Shown here: positions 7,731 through 33,798 of the stretch, one piece after another | Layout of the letters: every line of letters begins with the position of its first letter | How positions within the stretch are numbered: position 1 is the first letter of the stretch | From: Alphaproteobacteria bacterium | Lineage (GTDB): Bacteria > Pseudomonadota > Alphaproteobacteria > UBA828 | Length of the DNA: 64,000 bases | Assembly: GCA_965214705.1 (NCBI GenBank) | Contig: CBDCCI010000002.1 | Span: 480,001-544,000, forward strand | Direction of reading: 5' to 3' | Program-made: the position numbers and the translations under genes | The notes under the pieces: generated by a model | Told to the model about the DNA's origin: nothing | What the model saw: the letters and a program-made list of their open reading frames with translations, nothing else | Database searches by the model: none

Positions 7731-7820
7731 TGCCGAAAGGCGTTTTGCACGTGTTCGTGGCATGGGTGGTCTGATGTTGCCTGACTCCTTCAACCAGTGA
7801 TGCCGAAAGGCGTTCGCGAG
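7715..7820 (+). CRISPR. Degenerate mini-array (2 pseudo-repeats, about 34-nt spacer), CreA/CreR-like
   Basis: Two copies of AGTGATGCCGAAAGGCGTT versus array core AGTGATGCCGAGAGGCGTT, 70 bp apart. Confidence 0.85.
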
Positions 7821-7821
7821 C

Positions 7822-15739: not shown

Positions 15740-15987
15740 CGCCGCGCGCGGCGGCAAGCGCCACCGGGTGGACTAGACCGCACGCGGCAAAGAAGTGGAA
15801 ATCCTGCACGATTTCAATACCTTTGATGGGCGGGTTCGCCATGTCGTGCTTGCCGGCGCCTGACAACTGAAGTTCCGTCATTTTCCTGCCGGACGACAAG
15901 CACCGGACCGGCACATGTGACGAACCGGTTGAGGTGCATGATTAGTCAGGCTATTATCCCCGCAAAACAGTGTGTTATACGAATAGA
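15740..15987 (+). promoter_or_regulatory. CRISPR leader
   Basis: Non-coding stretch between cas2 and the first repeat, more AT-rich near the repeat. Confidence 0.75.
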
Positions 15988-17392
15988 GTGAAATTGTCAG
16001 TGATGCCGAGAGGCGTTGAGCACCCGATACCGATACCGTCCGCGTGCTCGCGGAGTGGGTGAAATTGTCAGTGATGCCGAGAGGCGTTGAGCACAGTGTG
16101 AGTGAGACGATCCACCCAGTCAATCGAGTGGGTGAAATTGTCAGTGATGCCGAGAGGCGTTGAGCACAAACAGGGTGTGCACGATATTTCCCTCGCCGAC
16201 TAGTGAAATTGTCAGTGATGCCGAGAGGCGTTGAGCACAGAAAGACCCCAAAGAGAGAGATCAAGCACTGCGGTGAAATTGTCAGTGATGCCGAGAGGCG
16301 TTGAGCACATGCAATTCGACAACCGCATGCGCATCCTCATGCACCGTGAAATTGTCAGTGATGCCGAGAGGCGTTGAGCACCACACAAACCAAAAGTTGC
16401 GTGTCATCCGAATTCGGTGAAATTGTCAGTGATGCCGAGAGGCGTTGAGCACCTCAGACGAGAGTGCACCCAGAACTACAAGATCAGAGTGAAATTGTCA
16501 GTGATGCCGAGAGGCGTTGAGCACACCGCCGAGGAATCGACCCTCCAGCCGCTCCGCGAGTGTGAAATTGTCAGTGATGCCGAGAGGCGTTGAGCACTGC
16601 GACGATAGCGGCACTGGGCAATCCTGCCCGTGCAGTGAAATTGTCAGTGATGCCGAGAGGCGTTGAGCACCTCGCGAATCTCGCCAAGGTATACGACCTG
16701 GACGAAGGTGAAATTGTCAGTGATGCCGAGAGGCGTTGAGCACGTGATGGTGCGCGGAGTTGAAGCCTGATTTCGTCGCGTGAAATTGTCAGTGATGCCG
16801 AGAGGCGTTGAGCACTACAACCGGGTCCTCCTGCCGAACGCGCGGTTCAAGCGAAATTGTCAGTGATGCCGAGAGGCGTTGAGCACCGCAATGCCCGGGC
16901 AGGAACGTAACCGCCACGCACGGGCGAAATTGTCAGTGATGCCGAGAGGCGTTGAGCACTAGATGTGGTTGGCGGTCGCCGACCGGTGGAGGGTGAGCGA
17001 AATTGTCAGTGATGCCGAGAGGCGTTGAGCACATTGTCGTCACGTCGCCTGGCGCGGCTCGCAACGGCGAAATTGTCAGTGATGCCGAGAGGCGTTGAGC
17101 ACATGAGCAGGTGGTCGAGCGCATCCGCCGCCATGTCTGCGAAATTGTCAGTGATGCCGAGAGGCGTTGAGCACCCGCTGCACGCTCCCGGTGGTGACGT
17201 CGGTGGGGTCGAACGGCGAAATTGTCAGTGATGCCGAGAGGCGTTGAGCACACCGAGACGCTCGAGATTAGCCACCGCGCCACCGGGCGAAATTGTCAGT
17301 GATGCCGAGAGGCGTTGAGCACATCGTGGCGATCAAGAGCCGCGAGGTTTGGGAAATGGGCGAAATTGTCAGTGATGCCGAGAGGCGTTGAG
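15988..17392 (+). CRISPR. CRISPR array, 20 repeats (36 bp, last truncated) and 19 spacers of 34-41 bp
   Basis: Repeat GTGAAATTGTCAGTGATGCCGAGAGGCGTTGAGCAC; repeats 13-20 begin GCG. Confidence 0.98.
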
Positions 17393-19387
17393 GCGCAGGG
17401 CTGGTGTAGCGCAGCGCGAAGCTGGGCGGCCCTGTACGATTGCCTCCCCGGCGAACTCGAAGAAACGATGGACGGACGCGATCTCGCCGCTCACGCCGAG
17501 GAGGCGGGATCGACGGACGCGTTGCAAGCCCAGATCGAAGAGGCTGACGCGACGAGTTGGCTGGACGAGCTGCACGGCTTCCTGTCGGCTCATGGCTTCG
17601 GCGACGCGCTGCGAGGTCTGAAGATCGTCCCGGACCAGAACGGCAGGTTCGGCTCGCTCCCACAACTGCATCGCGACCGAGACATCCCCGGTGAGTTGAA
17701 GGAGATCGCGCAACTCGTCGGTTGGGATCTTCGTGCACAGTTGCGTGATACGCATTTCTGTACGCTTGCCGACGAACCCGGAGCGGGAGACATCGACAGC
17801 GACTTGGTCATCCCCAAGCTGATCGAGCGCCTACGCGAACGTATGGAGAGGCCGCTCGACGACGATTCGAGGAGCGCCAATGTCCGGCTCTTCGGCTGGC
17901 TCGCGACGCACGATCAGTGGCGCCATCTCGAAGGATTCCCGGCGTTCTCGGACGAGGACGATTCAAGCTCCCCTATCAAGCTACGACAGCACGAGGACGA
18001 CGCCTCCGAGCGGCCCCTCGCGCCTGTGTGGACATGGCCGGAACCACTCCGGCAATATGCGGACCTGTTCCCCCAACGCCGCATACTGGCTGACGACTTC
18101 GCTGTTCGACTTGACGATCCCTCTGTGTGGTCCGCTCTCGACGGGCGCGGCTTCCTCCGCACGAGTGTCCTGTATACCCGAGCGGTACAGTTCGACGAGT
18201 TTCTTCTGGACGAACCCCTGTCCGAAGCCGACGAGGGAGAGGTCGAGCACAAGGTAGACGGCACAGTCGAGGTCACGAACGTCGCCTTCCTGTCAACGAG
18301 GGATATCGGGATCCTGTCCAGGGTCCGTCAGAGCCGGAACCAGGGACAACTCTTCTGGGATTTTCTCACTCGATGGCTTGCAGTCGAGGATACCCAAGGA
18401 CTAGAGGCCCGAGAGTCGATGTGTGTATGTGGAGAGGCTCACCGCTACTACCCGGCCGCGTGGCTTGTTCCCGTCGCACACAACAAATGGGTTCCGCTGG
18501 AACGCAAGCGCACCGACCGGGCAACCGCACACTCCCTCGCGAACCTCATCCGCGACAGCCAATGGCCATCGGATCTCCTGCAGACGAGTCCGCAGGTCGT
18601 CGCTCTCCTGAAGGCGCTCCGGGTCGGCGTTCCCGAGCTCATCATGGAGCTCGTCACGACGGATGACGACGAACGGGCTGCTCTGGGCGAGACGCTCGCA
18701 CAGCTTCTGACGTCGGTCGGCAACGACTGGGACCGTTTGCAGGTGCTCGCCGAGGACATACAGGAGGACGGGGGACTGTTCGACCACCTTGAAGAACGCC
18801 GGCAGCGCCGTCGCATGGTGCGCGAGAATCAGAGGTTAGGTGCCCTCGTCGAGGATCTGGTCAGGGAGAGCCTGGAGGGCGAAGGCTTCGAGGTCCGTCG
18901 TACTGGCGTCGGCTCGGACTTCGCCATACAGCCCCGCCCGAATGCGGAAGACGAACAAATCCAGCTCGAATTGATCCGACGCGGCCGGACTTGGCTCGTC
19001 GAGATCAAGTCCGCCCGCGACCACAGCGTGAGGATGACGTCTGTCCAGGCACGAACCTCCGTCAAACACGAGCCAGACTACCTGCTTTGCGTGGTGCCGA
19101 TCAGCTCTGGCCCAGAGGATCCGGACATCGAAGCCGTTCGCAGAAGTATGCGTTTCGTCGATGGAATTGGTGCGCGCCTTGCAGACATCTGCACCGCTCT
19201 GGACCGTTTCGAGAGCTTGCGCGACAGCGTCACCGTCGAAGACCCGGCGGGCCTCCGCCTGGAACTCGATTCGGGCTCGCCGCGTATCCGCATCGAGAAC
19301 ACGGTGTGGGAGGCCGGATTCGGACTTGAGAACCTGCTCTCCCGGCTGACCGCACCGGACGACGGTGGCGGCAGTGCCGCCCCGTAA
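17393..19387 (+). pseudogene. 5'-truncated large protein with C-terminal PD-(D/E)xK (DUF3883-like) nuclease domain
   Basis: Open frame begins at the truncated last repeat; GFEVRRTGVGSDF...WLVEIKS motif. Confidence 0.6.
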
Positions 19388-19394
19388 GCAAGCC

Positions 19395-19565
19395 ACCCCT
19401 TGCATGAGGGGGACCCGCGTTCCCGCTCATGACCTTGCCGAGATGCTGGCCAGCGGCGATAAGATTGAGGCGATCCACGACGCTTGGCCGATCCTCTCTG
19501 TGGAGCAAATCGAGGCAGCAGCCCTCTACGCGCGCGCTTATCCCAGGCGGGGCAGACCGCGAAGT
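19395..19565 (+). pseudogene. DUF433-type antitoxin C-terminal fragment
   Basis: PCMRGTRVPAHDLAEML...WPILSVEQIEAAALYA. Confidence 0.65.
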
Positions 19566-19627
19566 GCAGCGGCCGCGGCTGCTCTTCCAGAGGCGCCACC
19601 GCAAACGGCATGACGGGGTCCTGGAAG

Positions 19628-19966
19628 ATGAACGCATCCGAATGCTCCATCGAACGCGGCAGCGGCAACGTATTCGCCGATCTCGATCTTCCCGACGCCG
19701 ATACCCACCTTGTGAAGGCGGGGCTCGTGAGCTGTATTGATGACATCATCCGACAACGCGGCATCACCCACGCGGAGGCTGCACGCGTGCTCGGCTTGTC
19801 GCGGTCCGACCTGTCCGGTTTGCTTCGGGGCGACGTTCGCGAGTATTCGCTGGAGCGCCTGTTGCGCTTCCTGACTGCCCTCGGCCGCGATATCGACATC
19901 GTCATCCGACCGTCGGGTTCGGACTCCGAAGGAACGCTGCGCATCGCCGCGAACGAACAGGGTTGA
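19628..19966 (+). CDS. XRE-family HTH protein (HigA-like antitoxin)
   Basis: GSGNVFADL..., ITHAEAARVLGL, YSLERLLRFLTALG. Confidence 0.85.
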   Translation: MNASECSIERGSGNVFADLDLPDADTHLVKAGLVSCIDDIIRQRGITHAEAARVLGLSRSDLSGLLRGDVREYSLERLLRFLTALGRDIDIVIRPSGSDSEGTLRIAANEQG

Positions 19967-20239
19967 TGCCGCTGTCGTGTCGCCGAAAGCCACATGACGA
20001 AGAAGGGCGAGAACGAGATGCGCGGTGCGTTCGTGAACGGCGCGCTCGTGGTTGACGAGGGCTCGCCCGGCACCGCCGTCTAGGCCCGCGACCCGCTCCG
20101 GATCGCCGATCCGCTTCGCATTCCATGCGTGGTGCCGGTCGGCGACGAGAAGCAGCTCGATTGCGGCCGTGACCCCGGCATCGTGTGACTCTAGCGGTGA
20201 GGCAGGCGAGCTTTCCCGCAGAACCGGGAAGCAGGCTTG

Positions 20240-20640
20240 ACATCCTCGGCGCCACCTGGCAGCGCTGCCGCGTGCACTTCATGCGCAACCTGCTGGCCCA
20301 TGCCGGCAAGCAGGGCCGGCGCGTCGTCTCAGCCTTCGTCGCCTCCGCCTTCGCCCAGGACGACGCCGAGGCCGCTGCCGGCCAGTGGCGCCTGGTTGCC
20401 GACCAACTCAAGCCCAAGGCACCCAAGCTGGCGGCCCTCATGGACGAGGCCCAGCACGACGTCCTCGCCTACATGAGCTTCCCCAAGGAGCACCGCGCCA
20501 AGCTCCACTCGACCAACCCGCTCGAACGCGTCAACGGCGAGATCAAGCGACGCACCAACGTCGTCGGCATCTTCCCCAACGAGGACGCCATCACCCGCCT
20601 CGTCGGCGCCGTTCTGCTCGAGCAGAACGACTGTTGGTGA
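20240..20640 (+). pseudogene. IS256-family transposase C-terminal fragment
   Basis: WQRCRVHFMRN, STNPLERVNGEIKRRT, GIFPNEDA. Confidence 0.88.
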
Positions 20641-21283
20641 CGGCGCAAAAGCGCGCGTATTCGCTCTTATGGGGCTGTCTGGGTCAAGTCAGAAGGCTAG
20701 GGCTGGCTATCACATGCCTCGCCTCCTCCGAGTTGGCAGGATCGCTAGCCCGACTTCCGCAACTCGGCTGACTGCGTGGTAGCCGCCGGTTCTGCGTCGC
20801 CCATGCGACTTGCCATCGCTCAGCAGGTTGCGAGAATCTGCGCTGCCGGTTTGCACGGGGTCCGACTGCGGCCGCCGACGGACATGCGCCCCGAGCTCGA
20901 CGGAATGCGTGGGAGCCGGCCGAGACAGGGATTGCCGGGTTCCCACGCTCTCCTCGCGGAGACCCGTCCGGGCGACCCGAGGCTACATCCCGGTGTGGCG
21001 CTCCGGCAAGGCGCCGGCCACCCAGGCGGAAGACTCCTCTGGCCTTTGCTGCAGCTGCGTGCGCCTGCCGAACTCTCTCCACAGGGCATCGCTCCTTCGC
21101 GGCGCCTGGCCGTTCATCTCGTGCACCCGCTTCTGATGCAATTGCCTGGAACCGTCTTGGTCTGTGGGTGTTATTCTGTCGGCGGATGGCCGTTTCGCGG
21201 TCCGCGTCACGCGGACCGGGGAGGCGCGTGGCGGCCGGCATTGCTGACGTGCCCTTCGCATGTCGGCATGAGAGGAGCGCGCC

Positions 21284-22426
21284 ATGAGTTCCACCGACAA
21301 CAATGGAAACCAGTCCCCGCCGCCGGACGATGAGGATCGCAGTCTTCTGTTCGGCCCCACGAAGGCCGCAGCGGAGCGGGCTGGTGACAGGCAGAAGCCG
21401 CGCCGACCACATGCGGGTGCCGCGTCGCCACCACCCCCTAATTCCCCGCCCGCGGCGGAGGCGGCCACGGACCCTGCGGGCCGGGCCAGGCCGGGCCCGT
21501 CATCGGACGTTGCGCCGACCGAGGTCGCGTCGTCCGACGCGGTTCTGCGTCGGATGCTCGCCCTGTTGGAGGATATGGACAAGAAGGTCGCGGTCTTGTC
21601 GGCTGGCGAGACCGATCTTGCAGCGGCAGCCCGGACCATCGCCGGGCAAACGGAGCAGGTCGGCGCGGCGACCGAGTGGGTCAACGACATCAAGGCGGCG
21701 ATTTCGGAGATCCTGGCGTCGACCGGCAAGCAGATCGAAGGGCTGAAGAGCGGGAACAGGGATCTCGACGCGGCGCTGGCGCAGCTGAATGTGCTGAAGG
21801 AGGGGCTGGACAAGGTCGTGGCGTCGCTCGACGCCACGGCGAAGGGCCTCGGCAAGAGATCGTCGGAGTTGGGGGCGGTCAAGCAGGAACTCGCCGGGTA
21901 CTACCGGGAGTGGATCGCCGAGGCCAGGACCAGCCTGGGCGAGATGAGGGCGCTGTCGAAGCGTCTCGACGCGGGCGATCACATGGTGACCCGTCTGGAG
22001 ACGTCGATCGGCCCCTGGACCGAGCGCATGGAGGAGAGCATCGGGGCGAACAGCGCGGCGCAGCGCGATGCTGCGGCGAAGACCGCCGACAACGTGGACA
22101 AGCTCGCCATGACGGGCTTCAGGTTCCTGCAGGAATTCGGCACGGCCAGGGGGGACGCGCTGAAGGAGGCCCGGCAGGAGTGGACGCGCATTCGGCGCTG
22201 GACGCTTCCGGCTCTGGCAATCGCGCTGGTGATCGCCGCGCCGCTGTTCGTGTTTGCGGGCGCGCTTGGGCAGAGCGAGTTCGGCGTATTCGCCCCCTAC
22301 GACGACACCGGGGGCTGGAAGCAGGGGGTGTGGGAGCGTCACGGCCAAAAGGTCAAGGACTGCATGCTCAAGTCCTGGCGGGCGGGCGAAGTCGTCACAT
22401 GCAGCTTCGACATCCGGCACCCGTGA
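21284..22426 (+). CDS. Hypothetical coiled-coil protein with C-terminal membrane anchor
   Basis: Heptad-rich helical sequence, hydrophobic LAIALVIAAPLFVF; directly upstream of the relaxase. Confidence 0.65.
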   Translation: MSSTDNNGNQSPPPDDEDRSLLFGPTKAAAERAGDRQKPRRPHAGAASPPPPNSPPAAEAATDPAGRARPGPSSDVAPTEVASSDAVLRRMLALLEDMDKKVAVLSAGETDLAAAARTIAGQTEQVGAATEWVNDIKAAISEILASTGKQIEGLKSGNRDLDAALAQLNVLKEGLDKVVASLDATAKGLGKRSSELGAVKQELAGYYREWIAEARTSLGEMRALSKRLDAGDHMVTRLETSIGPWTERMEESIGANSAAQRDAAAKTADNVDKLAMTGFRFLQEFGTARGDALKEARQEWTRIRRWTLPALAIALVIAAPLFVFAGALGQSEFGVFAPYDDTGGWKQGVWERHGQKVKDCMLKSWRAGEVVTCSFDIRHP

Positions 22427-22472
22427 TCGGCGCGGCGAACGCGGCAGCTCTTGCCGCCAAGGGCCGAGAGGC

Positions 22473-25400
22473 ATGGTCGCGAGCCTGAGCGATCTCGGCT
22501 CGAGCGCGATGACGGTCGCGTATTTCGAGCGCGAGGGCTACTACGCGAAGAACGATCTCCGGCACCGGCGTGCGAGCTTCTGGCACGGCGGGGGGGCGGC
22601 GGCGCTGGGCATGCCCAGGAATATCTCGCCCAGGACCTTCGAGCGCGTTCTTGCCGGCTACGTGCCGGGAACGGAGATCCGGCTCGGCCGGGCGCGCGGC
22701 GGGGAGCACGAGCACCGGCCTGGGCTCGACCTCACGCTGTCCGCGCCGAAGTCGGTGTCTCTGGAGGCGCTGCTCTACGGCAACCGGCAAGTGCTGAGCG
22801 CCCACGACGCGGCGGTCAGGTCGACGCTGGCCTGGGTCGAGGCCGAGCTTCTGCAGACGCGCGGCTATGACCCGGCGACAGGGCGGCGCCCGCGGGAGGC
22901 GGCGGACGGCCTGGTGGCGGCGGGGTTCCGGCACCTGACGAGCCGGGACCAGGACCCGCAGCTGCACACGCACTGCGTCATCGCCAACATGACGCGCAAC
23001 CGGGCCGGGGAGTGGCGGAGCGTGGAGCCCACGGAGATCCGCCGCAACGTGAAGCTGATCGGCGCCTGTTACCGCCACGAGCTGGCGCGGCGGCTGATCG
23101 ATCTGGGCTACCGCACGGAGACGACGATGATCGGCGGGGTCCCGGGCTTCGAGATCGCGGGCTACCCGCGCGCGCTGCTGGACACGTTCTCGTCGCGGCG
23201 CCGCGAGATCCTTGCCTGGCTGGACGAGCACGGTCTGCCCTACAGCGCGGCGCTGACGCAGCAGGCGGCGCTGATCACGCGCAAGCACAAGGTCGACAAG
23301 GATATCGACGCGCTGAAGACGGAGTGGAAGGGGCGGGCCGAGGGGATATCTCATGACCGCAGCCTCTCCCGGCAGGATCGCGCGCAGGACAGGCGCCAGT
23401 CGCGAGAGACCCACAAGGGCCGGCCCTATGTAAGGACGGAACAGGAGCTGCGGCCCGACCACCAGGGTCTCAGCCCCCGCGAGATCGTCTGGCGGGCGGT
23501 GGAGCATCTTGCTGAGCGCGCGTCGGTGCTGCGGGAGAGCGATATCCGGGCGATCGCGCTGAGCCATGCGCCTGGCCGGCACGAGCTCGGCGAGATCGAC
23601 GCGGCGGTGACGGGGCTGCTGGCTGACGGCCACCTGGTGGAGGCCAGGGTGCGGAGCGGCCGCTCCTTCGTGACGGGCGAGGCGCTGCGGTCCGAGCGCG
23701 AGATCGTGGTCCGCATGCGCGATGGCGTAGGTGCTGGGGACGCGCTGGCGGAGGAAGCGCGCGTATCGCATCGAATGGAACAGACCACCCTCACCGAGGG
23801 TCAGAGGGAGGCGGTGCGCACGATCCTGCTGTCGCGCGACCGGATCGTCGCGGTGCAGGGCGCGGCGGGGACGGGCAAGACGACGATGCTGCGCGAGGCG
23901 CTGGACCTTATCGGCGAGCGCAAGGCGATCCTGCTCGCGCCGTCGTCCGCCGCGGCGCGGGTGCTGGCGGACGAGACCGGCGCCAGGGCGCGCACGCTGC
24001 AATGGTTCCTGACGCGCTACGGCGACATCGGCAATGCGCAGAAGATGGCCAGTGCAAGGCGCGAGCACGAGGGCTCGGTGCTGGTGCTGGACGAGTCGTC
24101 GATGACGTCGACGGCGCAGATGCAGCTCCTGATGCGGATCTCGGAGCGGCTGCGCGTCGCCCGGCTGGTGCTGGTGGGCGACCGCGGCCAGCTGCGCGCG
24201 GCCGGTGCGGGCGAGCCCTTCCGCGCCCTGCAGGATGCGGGCATCGCGATGGCGGAGATGGACGAGATCCTGCGCCAGCGCGATCCGGGCCTCAAACGCG
24301 CCGTGGAGGCCCTGCAGCAGGGCCGGGCGGCGGAGGCGGCGCGGGAACTCGAAGTGCGCGAGGTGGCGCACGAGGAGCTGGGGGCGGAGGCGGCCCGGCT
24401 CTGGCTCGCGCTCGACGGGGAGCAGCGCGAAGGAACGGCGATCCTCGCGCCCACCCACTTCCTCCGCGCCGAGATCCACCGCGTGGTGCGCGAGGGGCTC
24501 GCCCGGGAGGGAGTCCTGCACGGCCGCGAGATCGAGATCGAGCGCTACGTGAACCGTCACCTGACGGCGGCCCAGAGGGCGGACGTGCGCAACCACGAGC
24601 CGGGCGACGTGGTGATCTTCCACTCGCGGGTGCCGCCGCTCAGGGTGGACGAGGGGGACGCCTGCCGGATCGCCCGCGCCGAAGGCGGGCTGGTCTTCCT
24701 CGAGCACCCCTCGGGGCGCACGGTCCACATCCGGCCGGACGACCACTGGGTGCGCTACCGTTTCGGGATCTACGAGACGGCGCGCATCCGCATCCGTGCG
24801 GGCGACCGGGTCCGCTGGACCAGGAACGACAGGCGGCACGGCCTCTTGAACGGCGGGGAGGCGGTGGTGGTGGGGATCGACTCCCGCCGGGTGAAGTTCG
24901 ACCTCGGCGGCGGAACGCGGCTGTCGCTTTCCCGCGACGACCCGCAGCTTCGCCATATCGACCACGCCTGGAGCACGACGGTGCACGGGGCGCAGGGCAT
25001 GACGCGGGATGCGGCGATCGGGGTGCTGGATACCGGGCACGGCCGTCTGACCGGCCAGGCGGGGCTCTACGTGGAGGCGAGCCGGGCGCGGGACCGCTTC
25101 GTGCTGGTGACCGACAACCGGGAGAGCCTGGAGGAGGCGCTGGAGGAGAACGCGGGTATCCGCATGACGGCGCTGGAGGCAGTGGGGGACGACGATGCGC
25201 CCCCCGGCCCGGCTGATGCAACCATCGGGATGCTGCGCGAGCTGAGGGACGACTGGCGTGCCCTCGTGGCGCGGGCCGGGGCCGAGCGTACCGCGCTCGA
25301 CCGGATTGACGGCTACGCCCGGATCGTGACCGGCGTACATGCCCTTGCGGCCGGCCCGGATCTGCCGCCGGAGATGCAGGGCTTCGTCGACGAGGTGCGT

Positions 25401-27632
25401 GAGCGGGACGCCGGGATCGTGGAACGGCGGCGCGACGCGCTGGCCTTCGTGCACGAGGCGGAGATGCACTGCCGCCGGCAGCCTCTCCTCAAGTGGGCGG
25501 CGGAGGAGCGCGGCGTGGCGGTATCCGCGCTGCCGGAGCATGCGGCGTGGCGGGCCGAGGGCGCGGCGCTGGAGGAGACCGGTAGGCGGATGCAGGAGAC
25601 CCCGGGCTTCTTCGGGCGGATCGCGGCCGCTCTGGGGCGGATCGCGCAGGGCTTCCGGCTCGACGAGGGAGAACGGTTTTGCGAAGCGGCCGCCCGCCAT
25701 GAGGCGGAGGCGCAGAGACTGGGGATCGACCCCGGCGGGATGGCGGGGGCGGCGGGGCTCGTGCAACGGGCGGAGGCGCTGGGGCGCCACGAGCTCCCCG
25801 AAGCCGTGCGCCGGACGGTCGCGGCGTGGGTCCCGATCGCCGAGCCGTCTTCTCGGGAAACGGTGCAACGACTCACTCCGGACGACCTTGAGGCCGGGCG
25901 CCGCATCGAGGCGTTCCTGCGCGACTGCCGGCAGTGCCTGGAGGCAGCCGTGCCTGCGGCGCAGGATCTGGACCCGCGGATCGACGCGGCTGAACAACTT
26001 CGCCGCGAGGGACTTCGGCTGCTCGGCGAGGGCGAGGGAGCGAAGCTCGACGATCCGGCGCGTGCACGCCTGTCCCGCGCAGCCGACGAACGCGAACAAG
26101 TGCGCGAGGCCGTACACGCGCTGGCGGCTGAGGTGCAGGCGCTCCGTTCGCGGGCGTTCATGGAACTCAGTGGGAACGTCACCCGGCAGGGCCTCGAGGC
26201 GCACTGCGATCCGGTCGACTTGCCGGCATGGGCGGACTTGCGGGATCGCGCCGAGGCGCTCCGGGGCCAGGCGGGCCTCGCGCCGGACGCGCGGGAGGCG
26301 GTCGATGCGGTGCTCGCCCGTGCCGCCCGCGTGGAGGCCGAGATCGCCCCCGTCAAGGCTCTCATCGAAGACGGCGCCCGGCACCTGGATCGGCGCGCGG
26401 CGCTGGACGAAGGGCGCGGCATCGTCGAGCCTCCATCCCCGGATGCGGTCCCGGTCTGGCGGGAACGCTCGCGGGAGCTTCGCGAGACCGCCCTTCATCT
26501 TCTGGGAGAGTCGCCGGCCGACACCCGGGAGATGCTGGCCGCAGCCAGGCTTGCCGACATGCCGCGGCTTCAGGGCGGCGTCCGGGAGGTGCTGAACCGG
26601 TTGGAGACCCTGGAGCTGCGCGACGAGGTCGCGGAGTTCCAAAAGCTTGCGGCTACGGTCGAGCGGCGAGCCAGGCGGCAGGAAACGCTGCCACTGCACG
26701 CCGAGGGCTACGGCCAGGTGACCGCGATGGCGCAATCCCTCTCCAGCAACGCGGTCTTGCCGGAAGCAGAACGCCATCAGGCGGCGGCGTGGCTCGACCG
26801 CGATCAGGGCTGGAACGAGGAGCTCGCCTCGGCGCGGAAGCTCACCGCGACGCAAGAGCAGGATGTCGACACGACGGGCCTTGCCGAGGCCCTCCGCGAG
26901 GCCGCGCACCTGCCCGCCGTGAGGTCGGCCATCAGGCAGGAAACGGCCCTGCTCGCCCGCTCGCCGATGCCGGAGCAATGGACGGCGTGGACCGGCGACG
27001 AGCCCTTGGTCGCAGGCGACCGCATCGCCTGGCGCGCTGGCGGCACGGTGCACCGGGCGGCGGTGTCGTTCCCGGGGGAGACCGGCGGCATGCGCGCGAA
27101 CGACACGCTGTTGGTGAGAATCGTGCAGCCGGCGGACGGGCCCGCTCTTGACGACGCAGGCCGGATCGTAGAGATCCATGCTCAGGCCCTTCGGGACGTC
27201 AGATGCGTCCGCGCCGAATGGTCCGACGAGGGGCTCAGGCAGCTGGAAACCGCCCTGCAGTACTCCGTGCCCAGCGCCGCCTGCCCGCTCGCCTGTCCTG
27301 AGCCCGTCGCGGGCGACCGCATCGCCTGGACCGAGGCCGCCGGCCGGAGCGAAGAGGTGCGCACGGTCGAGGCCGTGGTCGCCACACGGACCGAAGTCTC
27401 CGACGAGCACGAGTTGGGGCTGCGGGTGATCCACGCCTCAGGTCCCGACGCGCCGGAGCCCGGCGCCTCGATCCGGCGCACCGCAGACGAGGTCACCGCG
27501 CGCGGCTGCTACCGCGCCGCGTGGTCCGACGAGACCCGGCGCGAGGCCGAACTCGACCCGCAGAAGGAGGTGCGGGAGCAGACCCTGAAACAGGGCCTCG
27601 AGCACTCCCGCGGCGGGGGGATCGGCATGTGA
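22473..27632 (+). CDS. MobF (TrwC/TraI-like) relaxase-helicase with long C-terminal extension
   Basis: YFEREGYY, DLTLSAPKSVS, HLTSRDQDPQLHTH, QGAAGTGKTT, TTVHGAQGMT. Confidence 0.93.
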   Translation: MVASLSDLGSSAMTVAYFEREGYYAKNDLRHRRASFWHGGGAAALGMPRNISPRTFERVLAGYVPGTEIRLGRARGGEHEHRPGLDLTLSAPKSVSLEALLYGNRQVLSAHDAAVRSTLAWVEAELLQTRGYDPATGRRPREAADGLVAAGFRHLTSRDQDPQLHTHCVIANMTRNRAGEWRSVEPTEIRRNVKLIGACYRHELARRLIDLGYRTETTMIGGVPGFEIAGYPRALLDTFSSRRREILAWLDEHGLPYSAALTQQAALITRKHKVDKDIDALKTEWKGRAEGISHDRSLSRQDRAQDRRQSRETHKGRPYVRTEQELRPDHQGLSPREIVWRAVEHLAERASVLRESDIRAIALSHAPGRHELGEIDAAVTGLLADGHLVEARVRSGRSFVTGEALRSEREIVVRMRDGVGAGDALAEEARVSHRMEQTTLTEGQREAVRTILLSRDRIVAVQGAAGTGKTTMLREALDLIGERKAILLAPSSAAARVLADETGARARTLQWFLTRYGDIGNAQKMASARREHEGSVLVLDESSMTSTAQMQLLMRISERLRVARLVLVGDRGQLRAAGAGEPFRALQDAGIAMAEMDEILRQRDPGLKRAVEALQQGRAAEAARELEVREVAHEELGAEAARLWLALDGEQREGTAILAPTHFLRAEIHRVVREGLAREGVLHGREIEIERYVNRHLTAAQRADVRNHEPGDVVIFHSRVPPLRVDEGDACRIARAEGGLVFLEHPSGRTVHIRPDDHWVRYRFGIYETARIRIRAGDRVRWTRNDRRHGLLNGGEAVVVGIDSRRVKFDLGGGTRLSLSRDDPQLRHIDHAWSTTVHGAQGMTRDAAIGVLDTGHGRLTGQAGLYVEASRARDRFVLVTDNRESLEEALEENAGIRMTALEAVGDDDAPPGPADATIGMLRELRDDWRALVARAGAERTALDRIDGYARIVTGVHALAAGPDLPPEMQGFVDEVRERDAGIVERRRDALAFVHEAEMHCRRQPLLKWAAEERGVAVSALPEHAAWRAEGAALEETGRRMQETPGFFGRIAAALGRIAQGFRLDEGERFCEAAARHEAEAQRLGIDPGGMAGAAGLVQRAEALGRHELPEAVRRTVAAWVPIAEPSSRETVQRLTPDDLEAGRRIEAFLRDCRQCLEAAVPAAQDLDPRIDAAEQLRREGLRLLGEGEGAKLDDPARARLSRAADEREQVREAVHALAAEVQALRSRAFMELSGNVTRQGLEAHCDPVDLPAWADLRDRAEALRGQAGLAPDAREAVDAVLARAARVEAEIAPVKALIEDGARHLDRRAALDEGRGIVEPPSPDAVPVWRERSRELRETALHLLGESPADTREMLAAARLADMPRLQGGVREVLNRLETLELRDEVAEFQKLAATVERRARRQETLPLHAEGYGQVTAMAQSLSSNAVLPEAERHQAAAWLDRDQGWNEELASARKLTATQEQDVDTTGLAEALREAAHLPAVRSAIRQETALLARSPMPEQWTAWTGDEPLVAGDRIAWRAGGTVHRAAVSFPGETGGMRANDTLLVRIVQPADGPALDDAGRIVEIHAQALRDVRCVRAEWSDEGLRQLETALQYSVPSAACPLACPEPVAGDRIAWTEAAGRSEEVRTVEAVVATRTEVSDEHELGLRVIHASGPDAPEPGASIRRTADEVTARGCYRAAWSDETRREAELDPQKEVREQTLKQGLEHSRGGGIGM

Positions 27633-27731
27633 GCCAGCCAGGCCTGCACCGCTGCCTCCAGAGAGAGCATGTTCGGATATCCCGTTCAAGCTGCTTGCCG
27701 GGGACGCGTCCGAGGACGATCGCAGCGTCGC

Positions 27732-28178
27732 TCAACCGAGCGGCGGCGGCTTGCGCGCCATCCAGTCCCGGAACTGCCGCTCGACCACCGGCCCGGCGTC
27801 CGGGCCGAACACCGCCACGAGCAGCGGCCCGAGCTCGTGCTCCCGGCTCTGCAGTACGAGGTCGTCCAACGTCGTCATGAGCAGCAGCTCGACCGACTGC
27901 CGCAGCCGTTCGATCGACCCTCCGGAGGCCGCCGACAGCATGCTCTCGGCCAGGCGGTCCACACGGTCGAGCAGCCGGCGCTGTTCCGCCTCGCTCAGCG
28001 CCAGAGCCGGCGCGTTCGCCTGCGCGGGGTCTAGCTGCACGTTCAGCCCCGCCGAGATCACGTGGTCGTTGATGGACACGTCCCGGCTCTCCGCGACCTC
28101 GCGGATCCGTTCCCACTCCGATTCCAGGCACGAGATCGCAATCCGCGCTCGGGGCGTCGCGGGCCGCTCCGCTATCAC
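27732..28178 (-). CDS. RHH/MobC-like protein 3
   Basis: RIAISCLESEWERIREVAESRDVSINDHVI; GTG start overlaps the upstream stop. Confidence 0.65.
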   Translation of the reverse strand: MIAERPATPRARIAISCLESEWERIREVAESRDVSINDHVISAGLNVQLDPAQANAPALALSEAEQRRLLDRVDRLAESMLSAASGGSIERLRQSVELLLMTTLDDLVLQSREHELGPLLVAVFGPDAGPVVERQFRDWMARKPPPLG

Positions 28179-28495
28179 GGGCCGCTCCGGCGCGACTGGA
28201 TCGCGCGCTGTATGAAGGCGATCGCGCCGAACACGGAAAGGTCGGTGCCCGACAGCGACTCCCCCAGCGCGCGGCGCACCCGGTCCATCTCCTCCACCCG
28301 CTCGTACAGGGTCCGCTGCTGTTCTTCCGACAATACCAGCCGCTGCTCGTCCTGGCGCGGCCCGCCCGCGTCCTCGTGCAGCGCGCAGGCGACCAGGTAT
28401 CCCGAGACCGGCATGCCGAGCGCGGTCGCGCGTTCCCTGATCTCGGCCCTCTCGGCCCGGCTGCAGCGCAGCGTGCGGCGCACCACGTTCCCCAT
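28175..28495 (-). CDS. RHH/MobC-like protein 2
   Basis: TLRCSRAERAEIRERATALGMPVSGYLVACAL. Confidence 0.72.
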   Translation of the reverse strand: MGNVVRRTLRCSRAERAEIRERATALGMPVSGYLVACALHEDAGGPRQDEQRLVLSEEQQRTLYERVEEMDRVRRALGESLSGTDLSVFGAIAFIQRAIQSRRSGP

Positions 28496-28498
28496 CGC

Positions 28499-28882
28499 TC
28501 ATGGCTGCGGCACGGGGCCGCCCTCGGGATCGGCGCTCACCGAGACCGCGCGCCAGCGTTCGGCGGCGCCCGGATCGGTCAGCCGGTCGAGCTCCGCCTC
28601 CCGGTCGAGCCACGCATCGACGGCATCGCCGAGCGCCTTCCAGCGCTCCTCCAGCCCCATGTCAGCCATGCGCCGTTCCTCGATCTTCGCGAGCAGCAGA
28701 AGCTCGCGTACCGCGCGGCGCAGAACGGTATCGGGCAGCGGGTCTGCCACGGTCGCCCTGTGCACGATGTAGCGCGATATATCCATGCCCGCGTCGGCCG
28801 CGAGTTCGCGGATGCGTGCCCATTCGCTCGCGGTCGCCATCACCGCGTGCTGTGTGCGGCGCTCCGCCGGCCTGCGCCTCAT
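28499..28882 (-). CDS. RHH/MobC-like protein 1
   Basis: VMATASEWARIRELAADAGMDISRYIVHRA. Confidence 0.68.
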   Translation of the reverse strand: MRRRPAERRTQHAVMATASEWARIRELAADAGMDISRYIVHRATVADPLPDTVLRRAVRELLLLAKIEERRMADMGLEERWKALGDAVDAWLDREAELDRLTDPGAAERWRAVSVSADPEGGPVPQP

Positions 28883-29263
28883 GAGAGCGCCCCGGAGGCA
28901 GTGCGACACCGTGTGGAACCCCTCCCCAAGCCCGCATTCCGGCCACAACCACCTGTATTTCTCCATATAATGTAGATGAGACGCTGCCATCCCGATACGC
29001 CGCGGCACGCCATCGCCTTATCGCCTCCACATAAGCGTGTTTCCACCGCAACTCCTCCGCAACGACAGATCCATCTGCCCAGACATACGCCTTTAGTTCC
29101 CAGATTGCAACTGATCGGTTCGAAGCCTAAAATTTTATATCAGATAAAAAACCGCCACAATCCTCTTGTGAAACGACCCAATCACCTGTAATGTAATACA
29201 TATGCAGGAGAGAAAACGATCCAGTCCACCCCCTGACGCACTCCAGCTATATCGAATTCAGGA

Positions 29264-29275
29264 CCACACCACGTC
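29264..29275 (+). repeat. Right copy of 12-bp direct repeat (attR-like)
   Basis: CCACACCACGTC identical to 161-172. Confidence 0.9.
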
Positions 29276-29747
29276 GTGGATCGGCTACAAGCTGCACATC
29301 GATGCCGCCGATGGCGGCATCCCGGTCAGTTGCATCCTGACGTCTGCCTCGCTGCACGACAGTCAGGTCGCGATCCCGCTGGCGACCATGAGCGCCGAAC
29401 GCGTGACCAATCTGTACGATCTCATGGACTCAGCCTACGACGCGCCTGAGATCGGCTGGCACAGCTATCTGTTGGGCCACGTTCCAATCATCGACATCAA
29501 TCCCCGGGACAGGGGCTTCAAAGAGGACTTGGCGCGGGAGGCCAAGGCGCGGCGCCGTATCGGCCACAGCCACCCGGCGGACGACCGTTACAGCGAACGC
29601 TCGAACGTCGAGCGCATCAATGGCGGGCTGAAGGACAACTGCGGTGGACGCCATGTCCGCGTGCGCGGCCATGCCAAAGTCTACTGCCACGCGATGTTCG
29701 GCATCCTGGCGCTGACGGTAGACCAATTGGTGCGCCTTCTGACTTGA
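29264..29747 (+). pseudogene. IS5/IS1182-like transposase, downstream part
   Basis: SWIGYKLHID, SASLHDSQ, LMDSAYD, RSNVERINGGLK; probable IS end GAGTTTTGCAAGTGGCTC near 30010. Confidence 0.82.
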
Positions 29748-30583: not shown

Positions 30584-31735
30584 CTAAAGCCCCATGATCG
30601 TGGCGACGGCCTTTCCGACCCTCTCGGCGGCGGCTTCGATGTCGCGGTCGCCGAGGTGGGCGTAGCGGAGCGTCATGCGCGAATTGGAGTGGCCAAGCAG
30701 CCGGGAGACGACAGGGACCGGCACGCCGTTCATCACGGCGTGGCTCGCCACGGTATGGCGCAGGTCGTGAAGGCGCGCGTCCTCGATGCCGGCCTTGCGG
30801 CGGACCCGGTACCAGAGAGAGAGTTCGGACCCGCGCGGCCGCGACGGATCGCGCGGCGAAGGGAACACGAACCGGCTTTCTCCCCGCTTCTGGCGGTCCA
30901 GGATGCTCCTGGCCTGGGCGTTGAGGGGAACCTTTCTCGGCCCGGTCTTGCTGTCGGCCAGCATCAGCGCGCCGCCCTGGACCTCGGACCAGCGGAGCCC
31001 GGCGATTTCTCCCCTGCGGCATCCGGTGAGAAGCAGCAGGCGGACGATGTCGGCCTGCGGCCTGAACCGCTCTCCCCGCTTGGCCTCTTCGTCGAGGACG
31101 GCGTGAAGACGCGCGATCTCCTCGCGCGACAGGAAGCGCGTCATCGGCGACCGGCGGTTGGGGGCGATGCCCTGCGCGGGGTTGCTGTCGAGGAGGCCGC
31201 GGGCGATGGCGAGGTTGAGGATCGAGCGAAGCAGCTTGAGCGCGTTGTTGGCGTTGCCGGGCGCGGCGCAGCTGAATGCGTCGAACCAGCGCCTGACCTG
31301 CGCAGGCGTTATGCGCTCGAGCGGGGTCGCGCCGAAGGCGGGGAGGAGGCGGGTATCGAGCAGGCAGGCATAGGACTTCCCGGTCGCGGGCTTGCAGCGC
31401 CCGAAAATCGCCTCCTTCCATGGACCCTCCACGAACTCGCGGAACAGGGGGGCGGCGGGCGCCGGACGGACGGGCTTGTCCGTCTCCGGGCTTGCCCGGC
31501 GCTGATGGCACTCCCGCCGCGCCTGCTCCACGGTCCTCGTCGAGACCGGGCCGAGGGAGACGCGCCTGGAGCGCCCCCCGGCGTGCTCCAGCAGAACCCA
31601 GGTCTTTGCGCCGCTCGGACGGACCCGGACCCCGAGGCCGGGCACGCTCTTGTCCCAGACGGCATACTCCCGCGCGCGGGGGCGGAGACCGGCGACGGCG
31701 TCGTCGGTGAGCTTCCTGCGTTCCCTTGCCGGCAC
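30584..31735 (-). CDS. Tyrosine recombinase B, second module
   Basis: Close homolog of 1420-2565; TGCRRGE, HDLRH, LLGH..LRY. Confidence 0.92.
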   Translation of the reverse strand: MPARERRKLTDDAVAGLRPRAREYAVWDKSVPGLGVRVRPSGAKTWVLLEHAGGRSRRVSLGPVSTRTVEQARRECHQRRASPETDKPVRPAPAAPLFREFVEGPWKEAIFGRCKPATGKSYACLLDTRLLPAFGATPLERITPAQVRRWFDAFSCAAPGNANNALKLLRSILNLAIARGLLDSNPAQGIAPNRRSPMTRFLSREEIARLHAVLDEEAKRGERFRPQADIVRLLLLTGCRRGEIAGLRWSEVQGGALMLADSKTGPRKVPLNAQARSILDRQKRGESRFVFPSPRDPSRPRGSELSLWYRVRRKAGIEDARLHDLRHTVASHAVMNGVPVPVVSRLLGHSNSRMTLRYAHLGDRDIEAAAERVGKAVATIMGL

Positions 31736-31738
31736 GGC

Positions 31739-32860
31739 TCAGCTCCCCAGCACGGCGCCGATGGTCTCGGCGGCCTGCCGCGTCATCGCGTCGGCCGGGT
31801 GGGCATACTTGAGGGTGGTCCCCGGATCGGCATGTCCGAGCAGTCTGCCGATGGCGAGCACGGTCTCGCCCTCGCGCAGCGCGATGCTGGCATGGGTATG
31901 GCGGAGATCGTGAAGACGGGCGTCGCCGAGGTCGGCCTCCGCCCGGATGCGCCACCAGAAGCTGTCCAGCCAGTGTTCGCAGTGCGCGCGTCCGGTATGG
32001 GGCGACGGAAAGACCCAACGGCCGGTCCGCGCGATGCCGTCGAGGACGGCCCGCGCGGGCGCGGACAGCCAGACGGTCCTCGGTCCGGTCTTGGAGTCGC
32101 GCAGGAACAGGCGGCCCTCGCGGTAGTCGGACCAGCGGAGCGTCAGGATCTCGCTCTTGCGGCATCCGGTCAAAAGGAGCAGGCGGATCGCGGCGACCTG
32201 CCCCGGACACGCCTCGGCGTGCGCCGACAGCACCCGGGAGAGCCTCCGGATCTCGTCGTCCGACAGGACCCGCTCGCGCCCCTTGCGGCGGTATCGCCGG
32301 ATGCCCCGGCAGGGGTTGGAGCCCTCGGGCCGCAGCCCCATCCGTTCCGCCCCCTTCATGACGACGGAGAGGATCGGCATGGACCTGTCGGCGGCGGCCG
32401 GCGTGGCGGCCAGCGAGGCGAACCAGTCGCGCACCGCGCGCCGGTCGATATCGGCGACATTGCGCCCCGCGAAATGGGGCATGATCTGCTTGCGGAGGTA
32501 GCCCCGGTTGACAGCGAGCGTGCGCGGCTTCCATGTCCGCTCGTACTGCCGGAATACGGTCTCCGCGACGGCCTCGAAGAGCGCCTCCTCGGGACGGGGC
32601 GGCGCGGTGTCGCCCCGCCCGATCGCGGCCAGCATCCCGCTCGCGCGCGAGCGCGCCTCGATCACGCCGACCGCCTCGGCGTCGCCTATGATCTTCCACA
32701 CTCGTTTGCCGCGATGCTGGCAGTGGACGAAGAAGCGCTTGCGGCCCGAGGGCAGCACCCGGACGCCGAAGCCCTTGAGCTTGCCGTCGCGGACGTCGTA
32801 GGCGGCCTTGCGGGGCTTCAGCGCCCCGATGCGGGCGTCGGTGAGGTTGGTTTTGGGCAT
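31739..32860 (-). CDS. Tyrosine recombinase A, second module
   Basis: Close homolog of 292-1416. Confidence 0.92.
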   Translation of the reverse strand: MPKTNLTDARIGALKPRKAAYDVRDGKLKGFGVRVLPSGRKRFFVHCQHRGKRVWKIIGDAEAVGVIEARSRASGMLAAIGRGDTAPPRPEEALFEAVAETVFRQYERTWKPRTLAVNRGYLRKQIMPHFAGRNVADIDRRAVRDWFASLAATPAAADRSMPILSVVMKGAERMGLRPEGSNPCRGIRRYRRKGRERVLSDDEIRRLSRVLSAHAEACPGQVAAIRLLLLTGCRKSEILTLRWSDYREGRLFLRDSKTGPRTVWLSAPARAVLDGIARTGRWVFPSPHTGRAHCEHWLDSFWWRIRAEADLGDARLHDLRHTHASIALREGETVLAIGRLLGHADPGTTLKYAHPADAMTRQAAETIGAVLGS

Positions 32861-32978
32861 ATCCTCTCTCCCGGTTGCGATTGCAGCCGGGGAACCGGGC
32901 GTTGACCGATCCGTCCGGATGCAACAAGATGCGGAAGAAAAAGCGACCCTTAGTCAGATAGTTAGCACCGCAGGTGCG
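32861..32978 (-). promoter_or_regulatory. Conserved left terminus of the tandem-recombinase element
   Basis: Reverse complement matches 174-291, beginning CGCACCTGCGGTGCTAACTATCTGAC. Confidence 0.85.
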
Positions 32979-33798
32979 CCGTCAGGTGTGCGTGGCCGAC
33001 CGGGGGATGCTGAGCGCCGACAACCTCGACGCCATGGACGCGATGGACAACGAGTACGTCGTGGGCGCGCGGCTGCGCAAGCTGCCGGCTGCACTGAAGA
33101 AGCAGGTTCTCGACCTGGACGCCTATGGCCCGCTGGAGGGCTCGCAGAGCCGCCAGGTCGGCGAATGGGAGCACAAGGGCCGGCGCCTGATCGTCGTCTG
33201 GTGCCCCGAGCGGGCGCGCAAGGACGCACACGAGCGCCGCAAAGCGGTGGAGCGCCTGCTCGACAAGCTCGAGCGCAGCGACAATCCGAAGGAGCTGCTC
33301 TCCAATCATGGCGCCAAGCGCTTCATCGCCGTCGAGGGCGACGCGCGGCTCACCGTCAACCCGGAGAAGATCGCCGAAGCGGAACGGTGGGACGGGTTGG
33401 CCGGCGTCATCACCAATCTGCGCGACGCGAGCGTCACCGAAGTGCTGTCGCACTACCATGGGCTGTGGCAGGTCGAGGAGAGCTTCCGCATCACCAAGCA
33501 CGATCTCCGGGTACGACCGATCTGGCACTGGACCCCGGCTCGGATCCGCGCCCACATCGCCATCTCCTTCATGGCCTTCGCCTGCGTCCGCCACCTTGCC
33601 TACCGCGTCGCCGTCCAGAAGCGCCGGATGTCCCCGGAAGTCATCCGCTCCGCGCTCGTTCACCGGCAATGTTCGATCCTGCGCTGCCAGCAGACAGGCA
33701 ACCGCTACGTCATCCCATCGAAGCCAACGCCGAAGGCGGAAATGATCTACGCAACCATGGGGCTGCCCCTGACGACCACCCCGTACCAGCTCGCCTGA
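32979..33798 (+). pseudogene. IS1634-family transposase C-terminal half (IS end at about 33909)
   Basis: VADRGMLS, LWQVEESFRITKHDLRVRPIWHW, RIRAHI; terminal GTCGAAGTCAGG. Confidence 0.85.

Follow-up and report, generated by a model that had tools for sequence, protein, structure and literature searches.

What is moved by a pair of adjacent tyrosine recombinase genes that recurs within a single stretch of bacterial DNA, and how are its target sites chosen? The question is raised by a 64,000-nt stretch of contig CBDCCI010000002.1 (assembly GCA_965214705.1, an alphaproteobacterium of the UBA828 lineage), called here the window, whose G+C content is high (59-73%) and which is crowded with mobile-element genes. 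An initial reading of the window, made without database searches (below, the sequence-only reading), had counted three occurrences of a two-gene block, A followed by B, and had taken that block for a transposon. The analysis reported here gives a different answer: with a probability of about 0.7, the A+B block is an integration module that forms the left end of integrative elements of variable size and cargo. Two complete pairs are present in the window, one per strand (copies 1 and 2, of elements 1 and 2); the third locus (57659-58894) is B with only the last 72 nt of A (remnant 3), so the earlier count holds for two full pairs. The genes are:

292..1416, plus strand: integrase A of element 1, 374 aa; PF00589 74 bits, PF13356 44.5 bits
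1420..2565, plus strand: integrase B of element 1, 381 aa, paralogue of A; PF00589 84.6 bits, PF13356 32.7 bits
31739..32860, minus strand: integrase A of element 2, 373 aa; arm-type by Pfam
30584..31735, minus strand: integrase B of element 2, 383 aa; arm-type by Pfam
57659..57730, plus strand: A tail of remnant 3, the final 72 nt of an A gene, cut at 57658/57659
57734..58894, plus strand: integrase B of remnant 3, 386 aa; 56% identity to copy-2 B (tblastn)

All five genes match the Pfam models PF00589 (Phage_integrase; 64-85 bits, cut-off 27.1) and PF13356 (Arm-DNA-bind_3, an N-terminal arm DNA-binding domain; 33-45 bits, cut-off 27), and the four genes of the two full pairs combine these with central SAM-like domains; A and B of copy 2 are paralogues with 38% identity. 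Most of what had been read directly from the letters stands. The A stop and B start are separated by 3 nt at all three places (1417-1419, 31736-31738, 57731-57733), and the two full copies share the left end of about 118 bp that had been noticed: 174-2566 aligns with 32978-30583 at 75.6% identity, the homology beginning at CGCACCTGCGGTGC, 118 nt before the A ATG, and ending at the B stop codon. The outside flanks likewise read as claimed, CCACACC-ACGTCA for copy 1 (161-173) and CACACC-TGACGG for copy 2 (minus strand 32990-32979), and lie in unrelated transposase genes, one of the insertion sequence (IS) family IS5 and one an IS1634-like DDE_Tnp_1 gene.

The extent of the first element is given by its target gene, for which the following features are needed (N5 denotes five variable bases):

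3..173, plus strand: 5' part of the IS5-family target gene, running off the window start; 98% (56/57) identical to residues 164-220 of P0122
161..172, plus strand: left direct repeat CCACACCACGTC (attL core, ACACC + N5), 12 bp
174..291, plus strand: left-end non-coding arm, with a CGCACC-TGC-GGTGC palindrome, TAAC and the 16-nt motif GGGTCGTTTTCTCTCC at 203-218
2567..29206, no strand assigned: cargo of element 1 (Pfam hits, CRISPR array)
29207..29263, plus strand: right-end arm, with GGAGAGAAAACGATCC, 41 nt to the direct repeat (43 nt to its ACACC)
29264..29275, plus strand: right direct repeat CCACACCACGTC (attR core), 12 bp
29265..29747, plus strand: 3' part of the IS5-family target gene; 99% (159/160) identical to P0122 residues 217-376 over 29265-29744

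P0122 is an intact 376-aa IS5-family transposase, and its residues 217-220 (HTTS) are found at both junctions: in a motif search for the continuation of the split gene, the left flank ends ...NAKGHTTS and ...HTTSWIGYKLH is read from 29265. The repeat CCACACCACGTC (CC-ACACC-ACGTC) occurs only twice in the window, at 161-172 and 29264-29275, both on the plus strand. Because the two target halves match the one protein and CCACACCACGTC brackets the segment between them, element 1 is read from these alignments as 174-29263, a single insertion of 29.1 kb that splits one IS5-family gene exactly; its target halves rejoin exactly, as those of an integrative element should. The missing half of the split transposase gene thus lies 29 kb away and not next to B.

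Other complete elements were sought among relatives. A scan of species-representative genomes gave 366 encoding stretches, of which 79 loci (identified below by L numbers) were kept with 6-kb flanks; with the window these make up 80 close-family sources. The left-end arm of element 1 is conserved in copy 2 and in nearly all of the 79 loci. The right-end motif GGAGAGAAAACGATCC (GGAGAGAAAACGAYCC; GGAGARAAAACGAYSC) is an inverted copy of the left-end 16-nt motif and is found in its right-end orientation in only two of the 80 sources, the window and L006, with ACACC 43 and 42 nt downstream, respectively; the two right ends align, and no others were found by nhmmer with a hidden Markov model built from both. 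L006 is a 4.35-kb element with ACACCAGGTC at both ends, the open reading frames (ORFs) of whose cargo and flanks gave no Pfam matches. Four distant relatives on complete plasmids (A at most 42% identical) were also examined, and three of these are complete, namely those of Novosphingobium pP6W1 (10.3 kb, repeat GCACACCGAACACG; cargo DRT3, HEPN-NTase and HNH), the Shewanella oneidensis MR-1 megaplasmid (11 kb, repeat CCACACCCCACGC; cargo bacteriocin peptides and an exporter) and Polymorphobacter p29334-2 (20.7 kb, repeat CACACCCTACGCA; cargo HipA, type I restriction and DUF262/DUF3696). Together with the two of the close family this gives five complete elements of 4.4-29.1 kb, with direct repeats of 10-14 bp that consist of ACACC and 5-7 variable bases, and all five close kilobases beyond B; the A+B block as such is therefore not the unit that is bracketed, contrary to what the sequence-only reading had proposed. 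The cargo of the distant twin-integrase islands (L081/L082, pP6W1; L085, p29334-2; L084, Paracoccus versutus pTAV1; L083, MR-1) is mostly concerned with defence or competition; at the pTAV1 locus it comprises BrnT/BrnA and type I-E Cascade genes.

How targets are chosen can be read at the left junctions. Upstream of A, nearly every locus carries GCACC-N3-5-GGTGC-TAAC, followed by a conserved leader that includes GGGTCGTTTTCTCTCC. The sequence-only reading had posited a CACACC-N6 rule, to be abandoned if other copies lacked CACACC six bases from their end; looked for in the relatives, the rule generalises strongly: of 70 distinct left flanks, 64 have ACACC placed 6-8 nt ahead of the GCACC of the element, compared with 0.3% of 3456 displaced control windows. 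The spacing from ACACC to GCACC is 7 nt in 46 flanks, 6 nt in 14 and 8 nt in 4; among the six flanks lacking ACACC, three keep ACC at 7 nt, one of them as CACC. In a logo of the 41 flanks with xxACC at the 7-nt spacing, which were selected on the last three bases (ACC) of ACACC, the A at positions 1 and 3 is invariant and position 2 is C in 39/41; N1-N5 show no constraint, N6 is G (30), A (8) or C (3), and N7 is always C (41/41). The junction rule can thus be sharpened to ACACC-N5 followed by an element that starts (R)CGCACC. The earlier picture of a short CACACC half-site plus a variable overlap is thus retained as to the short site, the variable stretch after it and the many unrelated targets, and is changed in that the core is repeated at both ends. 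Insertions lie in protein genes, in IS elements and, probably, in group II introns, the left flanks cutting ordinary genes in mid-domain (luciferase-like, FAA hydrolase, catalase, HMGL, multicopper oxidase, porin, IS1595 and others).

Some targets recur. The sequence GCTCYTACACC-ACGYCC-CGGGRCACGA has been hit by different elements, being occupied at the left junctions of L029, L030, L045 and L059 and empty at L029 ~4440-4545, L045 ~4420-4515 and L059 ~3050-3145. It probably lies inside multicopy group II introns, because in L059 a match to group II intron domains D1-D4 is found ~350 nt downstream on the same strand; a tRNA-like gene at this target (GCTCYTACACCACGYCC...) was considered and rejected, since Rfam gives only the group II intron domain nearby in L059. 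CACACC also occurs within the integrase genes themselves, as the His-Thr codons of the catalytic motif HDLRHT (window 1246-1263), and in L056 (left flank 3-542) and L026 elements are inserted in this motif in a different integrase gene. The family is thus able to insert into itself, and the nested or truncated copies L024, L026, L056, L068 and L077 may have arisen in this way.

The origin of the variable bases is less simple than that of the fixed ones. Paralogues of the target that lack an element show, where near-identical (at least 97%), ACACC and all five N5 bases (L019, which has three empty copies, L044, L062 and L046), with divergence starting at the element's first bases; in more diverged paralogues N5 matches at 5, 5, 4, 4 and 3 of five positions (L059, L030, L077, L027 and L045, respectively). 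N5 at attL is thus that of the target in most comparisons, and N5 at attR is that of attL in 5/5 complete elements, to be set against the rule for SE elements, which places the target spacer at attL and the element spacer at attR. Because N5 is the same at both ends in 5/5, identity of the overlap would seem to be required for recombination. An inherited N5, characteristic of element lineages, was considered from nine close pairs that match at N4 and N5 (0.89 vs ~0.25 background) and was set aside, the pairs being few and not independent.

A possible if doubtful alternative is that the target's ACACC-N5 is copied at each insertion by a strand-biased, replication-dependent route such as has been proposed for SE elements and Tn554, any ACACC then being usable. 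This would account for the agreement of attL N5 with the target in most empty-site comparisons, for the different N5 of the near-identical elements L070 and L071 and for the freedom of composition at N1-N5, and it has a counterpart in the placement of the attB spacer at attL described for SEs (PMC10214605). The same SE rule, however, leaves the old spacer at attR, so that the two ends should differ, whereas N5 is the same at both in 5/5; moreover, one N5 is found in both L023b and L045, identical elements that are inserted at different sites. Nor are tyrosine recombinases known to duplicate 10-14 bp.

Both members of the pair are catalytically intact in sequence, in agreement with the sequence-only reading, which had found catalytic motifs in the two genes: R-K-H-R-H-Y is retained in 70/70 aligned A and in 70/70 aligned B proteins. 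A B-type gene or fragment directly follows A in 77/79 loci, the exceptions being L031 (B 3.4 kb further on) and L073 (no B). Because the gap is 3 nt in 48/70 loci and A and B overlap by 1 or 4 nt in a further 9/70 (the remaining 13/70 spacings being artefacts of the start-codon rule used), the arrangement suggests co-translation of A and B. The pair is retained in relatives at most 42% identical, from Gammaproteobacteria and Sphingomonadales, and B is not followed by a third recombinase; conservation is limited to A and B, the homology ending at the B stop. In structure prediction the A-B complex had a median score of 0.51 (runs 0.48, 0.56 and 0.51) vs 0.00 for the best of three controls, with at least 67% of contacts agreeing between runs and a partner pLDDT (predicted local distance difference test) of at least 76. 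The mark applied is reached by 58/80 solved complexes and 2/110 mismatched pairs, and it is reached with a score of 0.60 or lower by only 7 of the 80 solved complexes and by both mismatches that passed; the predicted contact thus lends weak support to a heteromer, and the pass may reflect mere likeness, since solved tyrosine-recombinase assemblies exist.

It is unlikely, on these grounds, that only one of the two proteins is the integrase, its partner serving in an accessory role (as directionality factor, as resolvase of dimers of the circle or as back-up), with no obligate heteromer. Single P4-type arm integrases do normally suffice for the integration of islands, and the weakness of the complex prediction leaves room for this arrangement. 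A full catalytic hexad in all 70 copies of both proteins, strict adjacency in 77/79 loci, spacing that suggests co-translation and retention of the pair in relatives as distant as 42% or less all argue for two partners; so do the two sides of the core, ACACC and CGCACC, which differ as expected for two specificities.

A heteromeric recombinase of A and B acting at an ACACC-N5 core is, from the sequence comparisons, the most likely arrangement, and its working may be pictured as follows. A and B would form a heterotetramer of the XerC/XerD kind in which one paralogue reads the ACACC arm, which is invariant and common to attP and attB, and the other reads the element-side (R)CGCACC arm, while the N-terminal arm domains would bind the 16-nt sub-terminal motifs. 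Strand exchange would take place within ACACC-N5, over an overlap of 6-7 bp that includes the variable N5, and excision between the two repeat copies would yield a circle with one ACACC-N5. Because N5 differs between insertions, the overlap must be reset, either by integration at partly mismatched sites followed by excision, making new attP variants (as reported for GInts), or by exchange of only one strand pair, with replication finishing the process. The most far-reaching version, in which an obligate heteromeric arm-type pair in islands of Alpha- and Gammaproteobacteria reads only ACACC and takes its five-base crossover from each new site, is offered as a tentative proposal.

Very unlikely, finally, is the 2.4-kb A+B block as an autonomous transposon that needs only a CACACC half-site and ends at or just after the B stop, although several observations speak for it: homology between related copies usually ends within ~12 nt of the B stop, copy number per genome is high, L034/L036/L039 and L019/L048 share their left flank and A+B and differ right after B, and C often stands two bases after the stop codon, a faint resemblance to ACACC. 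No conserved right-end sequence or repeat is found beside B, however, and the longest string common to left core and right flank (4.64) is that of controls (4.53 +/- 0.11); the five complete elements all end kilobases beyond B at their own ACACC-N5 repeat. At eight sites with empty-site paralogues no continuation of the target was found after B or elsewhere in the locus (blastn-short), the search returning only the locus's own source copy, known paralogous copies and chance matches of 12-22 nt; by eye, ~11/19 nt of the target continuation recur in L044 10 nt after the B stop, which may be chance. Nor were missing halves of truncated genes found in the ~5 kb downstream in the 11 loci scanned, and Pfam searches of flanking ORFs did not find split-gene halves on either side of the 2.4-kb block. 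Two candidates for such a split were rejected: in L032 an SBP_bac_5 fragment stands to the left of the block and the SBP_bac_5 gene to its right is full-length, and in L001 an Eco57I-type methylase piece lies to the left and the MmeI TRD and C-terminal domains to the right, an order that does not suit one split gene. L043, L070 and L071, in turn, have in common at least 7.2 kb counted from the left junction, comprising A+B and then a Slam-like, an unknown and a porin gene, and differ from one another in their left flanks, which suggests that larger units move and weakens the 2.4-kb unit without abolishing it. On the transposon model the larger bracketed segments would be secondary, consisting of flanking DNA carried along where a weak right end had been read through.

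Against the reading of A+B as the left-end module of larger elements stand several facts that must be weighed. Similarity between related modules mostly stops at the B stop, even at 94-97% identity, and this is explained more simply by a 2.4-kb unit than by recombination between copies. Mosaic identity profiles of related modules nevertheless show that the many copies recombine with each other, which can reshuffle flanks and cargo: L036 and L039 are near-identical through A and half of B and then have 8-17 mismatches per 150 nt, and the modules of L034 and L036 are 99% identical, their flanks 81%. A right end, and with it the size of the element, is visible in only 2/80 close-family sources and not for ~70 left ends. 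A direct-repeat scan of 77 left ends gave six hits vs 4.15 expected by chance, among which L006 and perhaps L069 look real and the others do not; L069, with a 10-of-11 repeat and a weak motif match, is a possible 5.9-kb element. Paracoccus versutus pTAV1 has the pair and an upstream CACACC, yet no repeat within 20 kb. As to N5, that of copy 2 (TGACG) matches the intact IS of L049 (ATGCG) at 2/5 bases; strict overlap identity is hard to accept because the near-identical elements L070 and L071 differ at N1-N3; N5 is shared by seven pairs of unrelated flanks against a null mean of 3.2 (P ~0.05, the pairs not all independent), which is not clearly above chance; and no single simple mechanism fits every N5 observation. 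No excisionase was identified, and excision, circle and activity have not been observed, the empty sites seen being paralogous ones.

The left-end-module reading places A+B closest to the P4-type (PF13356) integrase islands and integrative mobilisable elements, with which they share an integrase at one end, short direct repeats, variable cargo (defence, relaxase) and the Pfam set. They differ in having two paralogous integrases and not one, in repeats of only 10-14 bp, and in targets that are not tRNA or tmRNA genes but ACACC and a variable 5-mer at dozens of unrelated sites; they thus appear to be elements resembling P4-type islands with two integrases and a five-base fixed target. XerC and XerD, acting at dif, are two paralogous active recombinases, each with its own half-site. 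A and B are likewise a pair of paralogues, but no NCBIfam model scores above its own cut-off with either, and the XerC/XerD models reach 31-74 bits against cut-offs of 330-335, so A and B fall outside these families. In CTnDOT (IntDOT), a short conserved sequence beside a variable overlap permits the use of many sites, there is one integrase, and the coupling sequences differ at the two ends; the A+B elements resemble it in conserved bases plus variable overlap and are unlike it in the other two respects.

Among the described systems with several recombinases, ICEPmu1 and ICEMh1 have, according to PMC6861422, a tyrosine recombinase pair thought to cooperate and direct repeats of 11-13 bp, together with full conjugation genes and insertion only into tRNA-Leu(UUG) at a fixed repeat. 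The A+B elements are alike in the recombinase pair and the short repeats and show neither the tRNA-Leu site nor the fixed 11-13 bp repeat; they are set apart on the strength of that description. SE elements are described (PMC10214605) as having more than one tyrosine recombinase at the left end and a variable spacer of ~6 bp by the termini, with the target spacer kept at attL, and excision of GInts is reported to make att variants that shift target choice (PMC5385486). The SE and GInt core, as described (PMC10214605), has four genes (intA-tfp-intB-srap; ginABCD), whereas the A+B elements conserve A and B alone, adjacent to each other and with no gene between them or conserved after them. SE, GInt and Tn554 combine one ordinary and one large enzyme, A and B being arm-type integrases of equal size, and the A+B repeats differ further in being perfect through N5. 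Tn554 needs the three products TnpA, TnpB and TnpC (by a title cited in PMC8138268); the A+B elements have no conserved third gene. RIT elements, also with tandem tyrosine recombinase genes in a mobile element, comprise in the account of PMC8138268 three genes, RitA, B and C, of the 'simple' recombinase group without arm domains, in contrast to two arm-type genes here. The sequence-only reading had already kept A+B apart from the RIT trios and had recognised no named class, and this is borne out by full-text literature searches, in which neither a name for the class nor any account of paired arm-type integrases acting at an ACACC core came to light (subscription journals and supplements lay outside their coverage).

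The family is widespread. Public relatives of copy-2 A number more than 100 at 73% identity or above, one at 96%, those that bear a name being labelled mostly Defluviicoccus or Rhodospirillales, and the 79 loci come mostly from metagenome-assembled genomes (MAGs) of Alphaproteobacteria, often with many loci per genome and at least 15 copies in one MAG. A plasmid megablast with window 1-4000 and 30000-34000 gave no match. Several local features were seen around the 3' end of B in these loci. L020, L028, L055 and L077 have in common a ~140-bp sequence (76-83% identity) at the B 3' end, after codon ~375, which lengthens the B ORF by ~16 codons; the L061 B has a similar extended C-terminal tail, and in L031 (7120-7290) the ~140-bp sequence stands directly after A, with B lying 3.4 kb further on. 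A second small mobile element, for which these genes are targets, may have its end here. A ~150-nt non-coding segment conserved after the B stop (L005 8272-8419, L011 8275-8422, L037 5812-5948) is 89-96% identical among these three elements, which are otherwise 76-80% identical; it recurs at 75-78% identity in L035 (8413-8520), away from B, is followed in both L037 and L035 by a similar ATG-initiated sequence, and may be a leader or regulatory RNA. In L079, a 1127-nt perfect inverted duplication (7425-8551 / 11987-13113) contains the end of B and 280 nt beyond, the copies lying tail-to-tail; it is either a recent inversion-duplication or an assembly artefact.

The cargo of element 1 comprises, in order, IS21 IstB, an IS110-type transposase, an NYN protein, type I CRISPR-Cas, a helix-turn-helix protein, a Mutator transposase fragment, TrwC and NikA-like genes. 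The CRISPR-Cas locus (6522-17392) is complete and sits inside the element beside the TrwC relaxase; positions within the cargo are:

6522-7478: cas6
7822-10242: cas3 (HD + helicase)
between cas3 and cas7: a 672-aa gene without assignment
12146-13090: cas7
13009-13773: cas5
13773-15458: cas4-cas1 fusion
15269-15739: cas2
15988-17392: CRISPR array, ~20 repeats of ~37 nt, GTGAAATTGTCAGTGATGCCGAGAGGCGTTGAGCAC
22254-27632: TrwC relaxase-helicase, 1792 aa
28175-29017, minus strand: two NikA-like genes

Because of the TrwC relaxase and the NikA-like genes in its cargo, element 1 looks, by gene content, like an integrative mobilisable element. A truncated second TrwC relaxase gene lies outside it (36351-37862, minus strand) and has 73% DNA identity to 22823-23207 inside.

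The second element of the window is represented by these features in addition to its integrase genes:

32979..32990, minus strand: left junction CACACC-TGACGG, with no second copy on that strand in the window
32861..32978, minus strand: left-end arm with the same palindrome as element 1 and the 16-nt motif at 32934-32949
32971..33795, plus strand: 3' part of the IS1634-like transposase gene that is its target, residues 277-551; PF01609

An intact 551-aa homologue from L049 matches 32971-33795 with 84.7% identity (tblastn); the 5' half of the target gene is absent from the window, as are both the element's second repeat and its right-end motif. The segment 30010-30372, downstream of copy-2 B, was considered as a right end and rejected, being repeated near 59027-59966 and unlike the right end of element 1; these repeats have the look of small elements with inverted repeats. 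Both element 2, which runs leftwards from 32978, and remnant 3 are left-end pieces whose right ends are outside the window or lost. In L063 (~12877, reverse), an IS1634-like homologue is truncated exactly at the ACACC-plus-6 position of element 2 (window 32985; L049 9483) and joined to an RTX-repeat gene with no element there; the junction may be the scar of a recombinase-mediated rearrangement at that site.

Remnant 3 was examined for a cut at a CACACC site and has none, its junction reading CTCGAGG|AAATAC. The 524 bp directly upstream of it (57135-57658) are a 100% copy of an integrase fragment at 47889-48412 (PF13495 + PF00589), and an IS110-family element of 1891 bp is present twice in the window (46008-47898 = 53042-54932, 99.9% identical). 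Because the exact 524-bp duplicate abuts both the IS110-family element and the truncated A of remnant 3, these duplications point to a recent IS-linked rearrangement as the probable cause of the cut. Elsewhere in the window, the 3' end of a Transposase_29-type gene (41118-43571) contains an exact 75-bp tandem duplication (43421-43495 / 43496-43570).

Were A and B to act as an obligate pair on ACACC-N5, the result would be a simple integration system of two proteins, requiring five fixed bases and using a crossover sequence that can change, intermediate between classical site-specific integrases and transposases. For annotation, the ends of such islands would be recognised on the left by ACACC-N5-(R)CGCACC and on the right by a repeat of ACACC-N5, and the member on the S. 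oneidensis MR-1 megaplasmid makes the mechanism directly testable. What is moved includes defence functions, a complete type I CRISPR-Cas system with a relaxase in element 1 and DRT3, type I restriction, HipA and bacteriocin genes in its relatives. Should the crossover indeed be re-templated at each new site, the chemistry of site-specific recombination would be combined with transposon-like promiscuity, giving perfect repeats of 10-14 bp at any ACACC, and this would explain both why the elements have bloomed in sponge-symbiont genomes and why they carry CRISPR-Cas, DRT3, restriction and toxin-antitoxin genes. Gene disruption and rearrangement in those genomes appear to come in large part from the A+B elements and from recombination between copies of them.

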